A DNA stretch of 64,000 nucleotides, taken from NCBI RefSeq assembly GCF_016903815.1, contig NZ_CP069973.1. One strand, written 5' to 3'. The first letter of the stretch is position 1; each line of letters opens with the position of its first letter. A model generated the notes under the pieces. The model searched no databases, was not told where the DNA came from, and saw only the letters and a list, made by a program, of their open reading frames with translations. The stretch comes from Escherichia coli. GTDB taxonomy: Bacteria; Pseudomonadota; Gammaproteobacteria; Enterobacterales; Enterobacteriaceae. Below, piece after piece: positions 34,512-34,865 of this stretch. The position numbers were made by a program, and so were the translations under genes.

Positions 34512-34865
34512 ATTGTTCAGTCTCTTATTATCTTTATATGCTTGATATACTTAAGGTTGTAATAAGCAAAAGAGGACTGAACTGTAAAATATAGGCGTTA
34601 TACTTTACAGCAACAGTACGCCGCTAACGCAATTGCTACCTCTGGCATAACAAGTATATCGGGTAAGGGTTTCTGTTCCGCACACGCAGGCGCAGAGTAT
34701 CGTTAAGATGTCCATATTGTTGTTTTAGGCCCGCTAGTAATGCGCTACGGGTATTTAATATTGTTAAACCCTGATAATCGCTCCGGTTATTTCCGGGATA
34801 AATGTACTACCGCAGTTACTATCATAGCCCCGGCAATAAAACTTGCCGGGGCTTTTTTGACGCTA

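Follow-up and report, generated by a model that had tools for sequence, protein, structure and literature searches.

The E. coli genes glcDEFGBA are handled as a single operon in the literature (PMC10272880). We analysed a 64,000-nt stretch of E. coli DNA (contig NZ_CP069973.1, hereafter the window) in which glcB and glcA, the last gene of the operon, are separated by a 354-nt spacer, with sslE/yghJ upstream, as identified from both ORFs and RefSeq annotation (Table 1). The initial annotation of the region had placed both flanking genes on the - strand, and the ORFs and RefSeq records agree. Window coordinates correspond to K-12 coordinates (NC_000913.3) minus 3086768, and the window spacer is 100% identical to that of E. 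coli strain 7/2 (NZ_CP023820.1). If glcDEFGBA is one operon, then glcA must depend on read-through of the 354-nt spacer and of the hairpin that lies within it. Two small + strand ORFs (34740-34889 and 34802-34969) were judged implausible; both cross the terminator described below.

Table 1. Positions of genes, transcripts and sequence elements at the glcB-glcA junction (window coordinates).
Feature	Position	Strand	Details
glcB (malate synthase G)	34866-37037	-	ORFs and RefSeq annotation
glcA (glycolate permease), last gene of glcDEFGBA	32829-34511	-	ORFs and RefSeq annotation
Hairpin	34826-34853	both	5' arm 34827-34836, loop 34837-34842, 3' arm 34843-34852
T run	34853-34858	+	T6 in the window, T7 in many strains
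C0719 match (Rfam RF00117)	34590-34811	+	model 1-222, full length; 299 bits, E 4.5e-79
ES170 (C0719 extended at both ends)	34559-34858	+	coordinates mapped via the C0719 offset
Candidate extended -10 promoter, TGaTATACT + TAA	34543-34554 (box 34543-34551)	+	sequence reading
Term-seq 3' end of the glcDEFGB message	34822	-	...GGGGCUAUGA-3', 4 nt past the stem

The hairpin of the glcB-glcA spacer

Positions 34826-34858 read AGCCCCGGCAA-TAAAAC-TTGCCGGGGCT followed by TTTTT, with a G at 34859. The two arms form a G+C-rich stem of 10 bp (G34827-C34852), to which an A34826-T34853 closing pair is added, and enclose a 6-nt loop. On the operon strand, the glcB stop codon is 12-13 nt upstream of this hairpin. 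The T run provides a U-tract on the + strand, and on the operon strand it precedes the hairpin as an A-tract. As a 28-mer, the element folds at -21.9 kcal/mol in the + orientation (z -5.0) and at -22.8 kcal/mol in the - orientation (z ~ -5), while none of 200 dinucleotide shuffles folded as well. When the complete 302-nt + transcript and the 381-nt operon-strand spacer are folded, the hairpin is recovered in both the MFE and the centroid structures. In a terminator scan of 4 kb, it was the strongest site, comprising 11 pairs (8 of them G-C) and a T-rich + tail. The U-tract score of this tail was 4.62, which is in the top 0.4% of all 15-mers in the window, while the operon-strand tail AUGAUAGUAAC (also given as UAUGAUAGU) had a score of 2.15, which is equalled or beaten by 37% of window 15-mers. 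The + strand has the anatomy of a Rho-independent terminator, with a stable G+C-rich stem-loop and a U-tract directly after the stem. The initial annotation had described a strong hairpin followed by TTTTTT on the + strand and devoid of a U-tract on the operon strand. The sequence, the terminator scan and the folding all bear out the first of these statements, and the tail score bears out the second. It had also placed the hairpin at 34829-34857, which is the same object with positions about 2 nt off.

The + strand RNA C0719/ES170

On the + strand, the spacer contains a full-length match to C0719 (RF00117; EcoCyc G0-8912), an E. coli/Shigella sRNA candidate located between yghK(glcA) and glcB, i.e. 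at the same locus and on the same strand; the gathering score of this family is 50 bits. The family definition does not include the terminator, as the model match stops 15 nt before the hairpin, whereas the RNA-seq-derived transcript from this locus is longer. C0719 was listed at NC_000913.2 3119380-3119601 (+), which are the same bases as the window match, and the same study reported ES170, an RNA-seq-derived transcript of 300 nt at NC_000913.2 3119349-3119648 (+) that was induced 3.5-fold in transition and 7.2-fold in stationary phase (Rau 2015, PMC4676190 and its supplementary file 2). The underlying libraries were prepared from adapter-ligated small RNA, and the paper does not spell out how transcript direction was called (PMC4676190). 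Mapped onto the window, the 3' boundary of ES170 is 34858, the last T of the T run, although it should be noted that ES170 boundaries are approximate, having been set by a threshold of 100 reads per base plus manual curation. Since ES170 ends in the T run after the hairpin, the hairpin is probably the intrinsic terminator of this candidate ~300-nt RNA, which lies entirely within the glcB-glcA spacer and antisense to it. The suggestion of the initial annotation that the hairpin might terminate an antisense transcript is therefore supported by both the C0719 match and the position at which ES170 ends.

The 5' boundary of ES170 falls 7-8 nt after the sequence TGaTATACT, from which a start at 34558-34559 is predicted, and we consider positions 34543-34554 to be a candidate promoter for ES170/C0719 on the basis of sequence. 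The element TGaTATACTTAA at 34543-34554 (+) presumably resembles a sigma-S-type extended -10 (TATACT then TAA), and a box of this type would fit the induction of C0719/ES170 in transition and stationary phase. A promoter scan passed over the candidate -10 box on account of its poor -35.

The Adams 2021 Term-seq tables, which cover three conditions, list no 3' end for the + strand in the vicinity of the T run, and a SMRT-Cappable-seq supplement has no entry for the site. C0719 is weakly expressed (Rau 2015, PMC4676190), and given this weak expression its signal may have been below the Adams 2021 cut-off. C0719 is no longer annotated in the current NC_000913.3 record, and its overexpression yielded no biofilm phenotype. 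A mariner insertion designated 'C0719' lowered both group II intron retrohoming and top-strand synthesis, in extracts to 17% of wild type, an outcome that might be due to polarity of the insertion upon glcA or its neighbours (PMC3636086).

In its overall design, the + strand site is similar to the Rho-independent terminators of enterobacterial sRNAs such as Spot 42, in which a G+C-rich stem and a U6-7 run likewise end a short non-coding RNA, except that the + strand stem of most strains has an A.C mismatch here. Homology to Spot 42 itself was rejected: a Spot_42 match at 34754-34860 (+) scored only 23.6 bits against a gathering score of 80 (E 0.13), and this sub-threshold match is attributable to a similar terminator stem, GCCCC.GC...GC.GGGGCUUUUUU.

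The 3' end of the operon message

For the operon strand, a 3' end is available from published Term-seq data. On the sheet LB 2.0, Adams 2021 list a 3' end at 3121590 (-) with an average of 47630 reads (PMC7815308 supplementary file 1). In their classification, it is a 'primary' end for glcB that lies antisense to C0719; its printed sequence is ...AAAAAAGCCCCGGCAAGTTTTATTGTCGGGGCTATGA, and it is reported only in LB OD 2.0, where glcD-internal 3' ends also appear (PMC7815308). We take the latter to indicate that LB OD 2.0 is a condition in which the glc operon is expressed. The BCM table of the same study has no entry at the site, but it was obtained at LB OD 0.5, a condition in which the operon is not expressed. 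The C>G bias of the spacer is weak and therefore uninformative with respect to a Rho utilisation signal. The initial annotation had stated that its reading would be contradicted if 3' ends or processing sites mapped to neither strand; the published - strand end at 34822 maps here, and its position 4 nt past the stem supports the proposal that the operon-strand hairpin is an mRNA stability or processing element.

Precise steady-state 3' ends located directly after stable stem-loops lacking U-rich tails have been described as a class, and such stem-loops protect against PNPase and RNase II (Dar & Sorek 2018, PMC6061677). The operon-strand site has the same features, namely a stable stem-loop without a U-rich tail and a precise 3' end at +4 nt, and thus fits an exonuclease-blocking or non-canonical 3' stem-loop. 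Unlike the published class, it lies within an operon (between glcB and glcA) and not at an operon end, and any dependence on Rho, PNPase or RNase II is putative here. There is also a resemblance to a second type of element. Intercistronic stabiliser hairpins can generate unequal expression within operons, as exemplified by the REP elements in malEFG. The glcB-glcA hairpin is likewise found directly behind the first of two cistrons, with an RNA 3' end at its base and a long untranslated spacer beyond. A REP/BIME identity was rejected, as the hairpin is a single-copy element, occurring at a median of 1 place in the 4541 E. coli genomes.

The operon-strand 3' end might instead reflect genuine partial termination, with the hairpin acting as a non-canonical intrinsic terminator and attenuator that sets glcA expression below that of glcB, perhaps aided by head-on collisions with polymerases transcribing C0719. 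The very stable stem (-20 to -23 kcal/mol) close to the stop codon would suit such a role, as would the fact that a convergent transcription unit shares the hairpin as its end; bidirectional terminators and RNA polymerase collisions are also treated in the literature, and a C34823A variant found in strain ST2747 makes the operon-strand tail more U-rich. However, the U score of the tail is reached by more than a third of window 15-mers, and the 3' end is just 4 nt past the stem, which is shorter than the usual release distance of 7-9 nt. Bidirectional intrinsic terminators between convergent genes, as known from SEnd-seq studies, similarly have one hairpin where two converging transcripts end, but the glcB-glcA element is asymmetric, with a U-tract on one side only, and the operon transcript continues into a downstream gene. 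The A-tract/U-tract symmetry expected of such terminators is missing on the operon side, and we rejected a symmetric bidirectional terminator due to the operon-strand tail score. We regard partial termination as an unlikely principal explanation.

Alleles, relatives and the proposed converging transcripts

We next consider how the hairpin varies. The spacer was found in 4543 of 5426 complete E. coli genomes. Its absence from about 885 of the 5426 is consistent with the C0719 losses reported in phylogroup E and Shigella. When the 36-mer at 34822-34857 was tallied in the 4541 E. coli genomes carrying the site, stem polymorphisms were confined to the two partners of a single pair, 34833:34846, with the remaining sampled variation located in the loop, the flank and the length of the T run. 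The K-12 type allele, with A:C at this pair and the loop TAAAAC, was present in 3907 genomes, and the same stem with the loop TAAATC in a further 415. A:T with the loop TAAAAC was found in 166 genomes and the window allele, G:C with the loop TAAAAC, in 49, which leaves about 4 genomes with other alleles by difference from 4541. Thus, the perfect stem is a rare minority allele, a point that is new. Many carriers of the G:C allele (49/4541) are labelled 405 or ST405-like.

Position 34833 is an A in about 95% of genomes, which creates an A.C mismatch in the + RNA and a G.U wobble in the operon RNA. The common allele accordingly folds at -14.7 kcal/mol on the + strand and at -20.1 kcal/mol in the operon RNA, i.e. 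the + hairpin is weakened by 7 kcal/mol. Both the G:C and the A:T derived alleles bring back Watson-Crick pairing, with values of about -20 to -23 kcal/mol on both strands. Since polymorphism is limited to the partners of one pair and the derived alleles re-pair, the pattern of sequence variation argues for selection on stem pairing. All E. coli alleles seen retain the T6-7 run, as does a divergent lineage. This lineage is represented by four divergent Escherichia-type contigs (L091, L092, L099 and L100), which retain the hairpin with a loop-variant allele, the G.U state and A7.

Outside of Escherichia, relatives of the locus are distant. GlcB identity is 93-100% within Escherichia and then 77% or less in Stutzerimonas, Pseudomonas and Burkholderiales; the protein search detected no GlcB homologues between 93% and 77% identity and no enteric outgroup. 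A contig scan with the GlcB C-terminus recovered only loci of Pseudomonas, Stutzerimonas and Burkholderiales (68-74% identity), none of them enteric. GlcA shares 79% identity with Pseudomonas proteins whose genes directly follow glcB. From these sequence comparisons, it looks like Escherichia acquired the glc genes horizontally. In Pseudomonas loci where glcB is directly followed by a true glcA orthologue, the spacers contain stable hairpins without U-tracts, while Stutzerimonas and contig L093 have GCCCCG...CGGGGC then UUU(U/C)GAG after glcB on the operon strand. Homology between the E. coli stem and these Stutzerimonas/L093 terminators is suggestive, being possible but unproven, as short G+C-rich stems recur by chance and homology is consequently not demonstrable.

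The allele pattern bears upon two simpler accounts of the site. According to the first, the hairpin is solely an operon-strand element, a partial terminator or stabiliser of glcDEFGB(A), with C0719/ES170 being spurious or incidental and the T run a chance A-tract. This would agree with the common allele being fully paired just in the operon RNA (G.U as opposed to A.C in the + RNA), with the - strand being the only one having support from 3'-end sequencing, with the removal of C0719, which has no known function, from NC_000913.3, and with the operon-strand U-tract of the Stutzerimonas and L093 hairpins after glcB. It does not account for the conservation of T6-7 in all E. coli alleles seen and in the divergent lineage, nor for the ES170 ends, which match a + strand promoter and terminator to within a few nt, a pattern not expected of operon RNA. 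Moreover, both derived alleles mend a true mismatch that is found only on the + strand. Overall, this account seems quite improbable.

The second account holds that termination of the + RNA is the sole selected function and that the 3' end on the - strand merely marks a passive intermediate of decay, without regulatory consequence. Canonical terminator anatomy is indeed confined to the + strand, stable hairpins in general stall 3' exonucleases, and the 3' end was seen in one condition only. However, the majority allele weakens the + hairpin and spares the operon-strand hairpin, and the reads at the 3' end are substantial. We consider this account doubtful, albeit conceivable.

We instead favor as the probable explanation that one piece of DNA serves as the 3'-end-forming hairpin for two converging transcripts, as judged from its fold, the C0719 match, the ends of ES170 in RNA-seq, the - strand 3' end from Term-seq and the allele pattern, each of which is either presented here or published. 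On the + strand, the G+C-rich stem and the U6-7 after it would form a canonical Rho-independent terminator that ends the ~300-nt non-coding RNA C0719/ES170. This RNA would start at ~34559 from the putative extended -10 promoter inside the spacer and be antisense to the spacer, and its terminator would shield glcB from C0719 transcription. On the operon strand, an equally stable stem-loop lacking a U-tract and situated 12-13 nt after the glcB stop codon would yield, in stationary phase, a glcDEFGB RNA with its 3' end 4 nt past the stem. The likeliest mechanism would be that transcription terminates or the RNA is cleaved further downstream in the AU-rich spacer and the stem-loop then blocks 3'-to-5' exonucleases (PNPase, RNase II), with weak non-canonical termination at the operon-strand hairpin possibly contributing. 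Read-through transcripts would then carry glcA, and any effect upon the glcB:glcA ratio would presumably follow from this arrangement.

Over about 300 nt, C0719/ES170 also has perfect complementarity to the operon spacer, and instead of a stand-alone sRNA it might be a cis-antisense RNA that regulates the glcB-glcA junction. Its level would rise in the growth phase of the operon, and either a duplex (via RNase III cleavage or protection from exonucleases) or head-on polymerase collision at the shared hairpin could generate the glcB-proximal 3' end, such that output of the permease (glcA) would be tuned relative to the enzymes. The G.U/A.C allele would then constitute a strand-selective setting of the switch. 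We assign this view a rather low likelihood.

With respect to the shared hairpin that we favor, it should be noted that it is essentially a known, ordinary element, as both readings rest on already public data, and it carries little weight beyond annotation. The C0719 record could gain about 47 nt to take in the terminator, and the glcDEFGBA operon could be annotated as having an internal 3' end downstream of glcB. The alleles that occur naturally (A.C/G.U, A-U, G-C and a strain with a 13-bp deletion) comprise a ready strand-selective mutant series, which could show which strand's RNA the hairpin serves and could probe antisense RNA control of the enzyme:permease ratio in glycolate metabolism.

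Several individual strains have further changes at the junction. In E. coli AST217, a 13-bp deletion equivalent to window 34847-34859 removes the 3' arm and the T run, making this strain a natural hairpin knockout with glcB and glcA intact. The rare C34823A flank variant of E. coli ST2747 changes the operon-strand tail from UAUGAU to UAUUAU and its score from 2.15 to 2.65. In strains M7424 and CNREC_004-43, the glcB stop codon TAA is TTA (equivalent to window 34866-34868), and the glcB ORF is one codon longer, extending to a TAG nearer to the hairpin. E. coli 2013C-4538 has a traT pseudogene in the place of glcA. Finally, in E. coli PEC408 (contig L002, 3980-4010; window ~34819), the IS5-family element ISKpn26 ends ...CTTATTCGCACCTTCC at exactly 7 nt from the hairpin; this strain has lost C0719 and glcA but kept the hairpin and glcB, and a type II Zorya defence system is located upstream.
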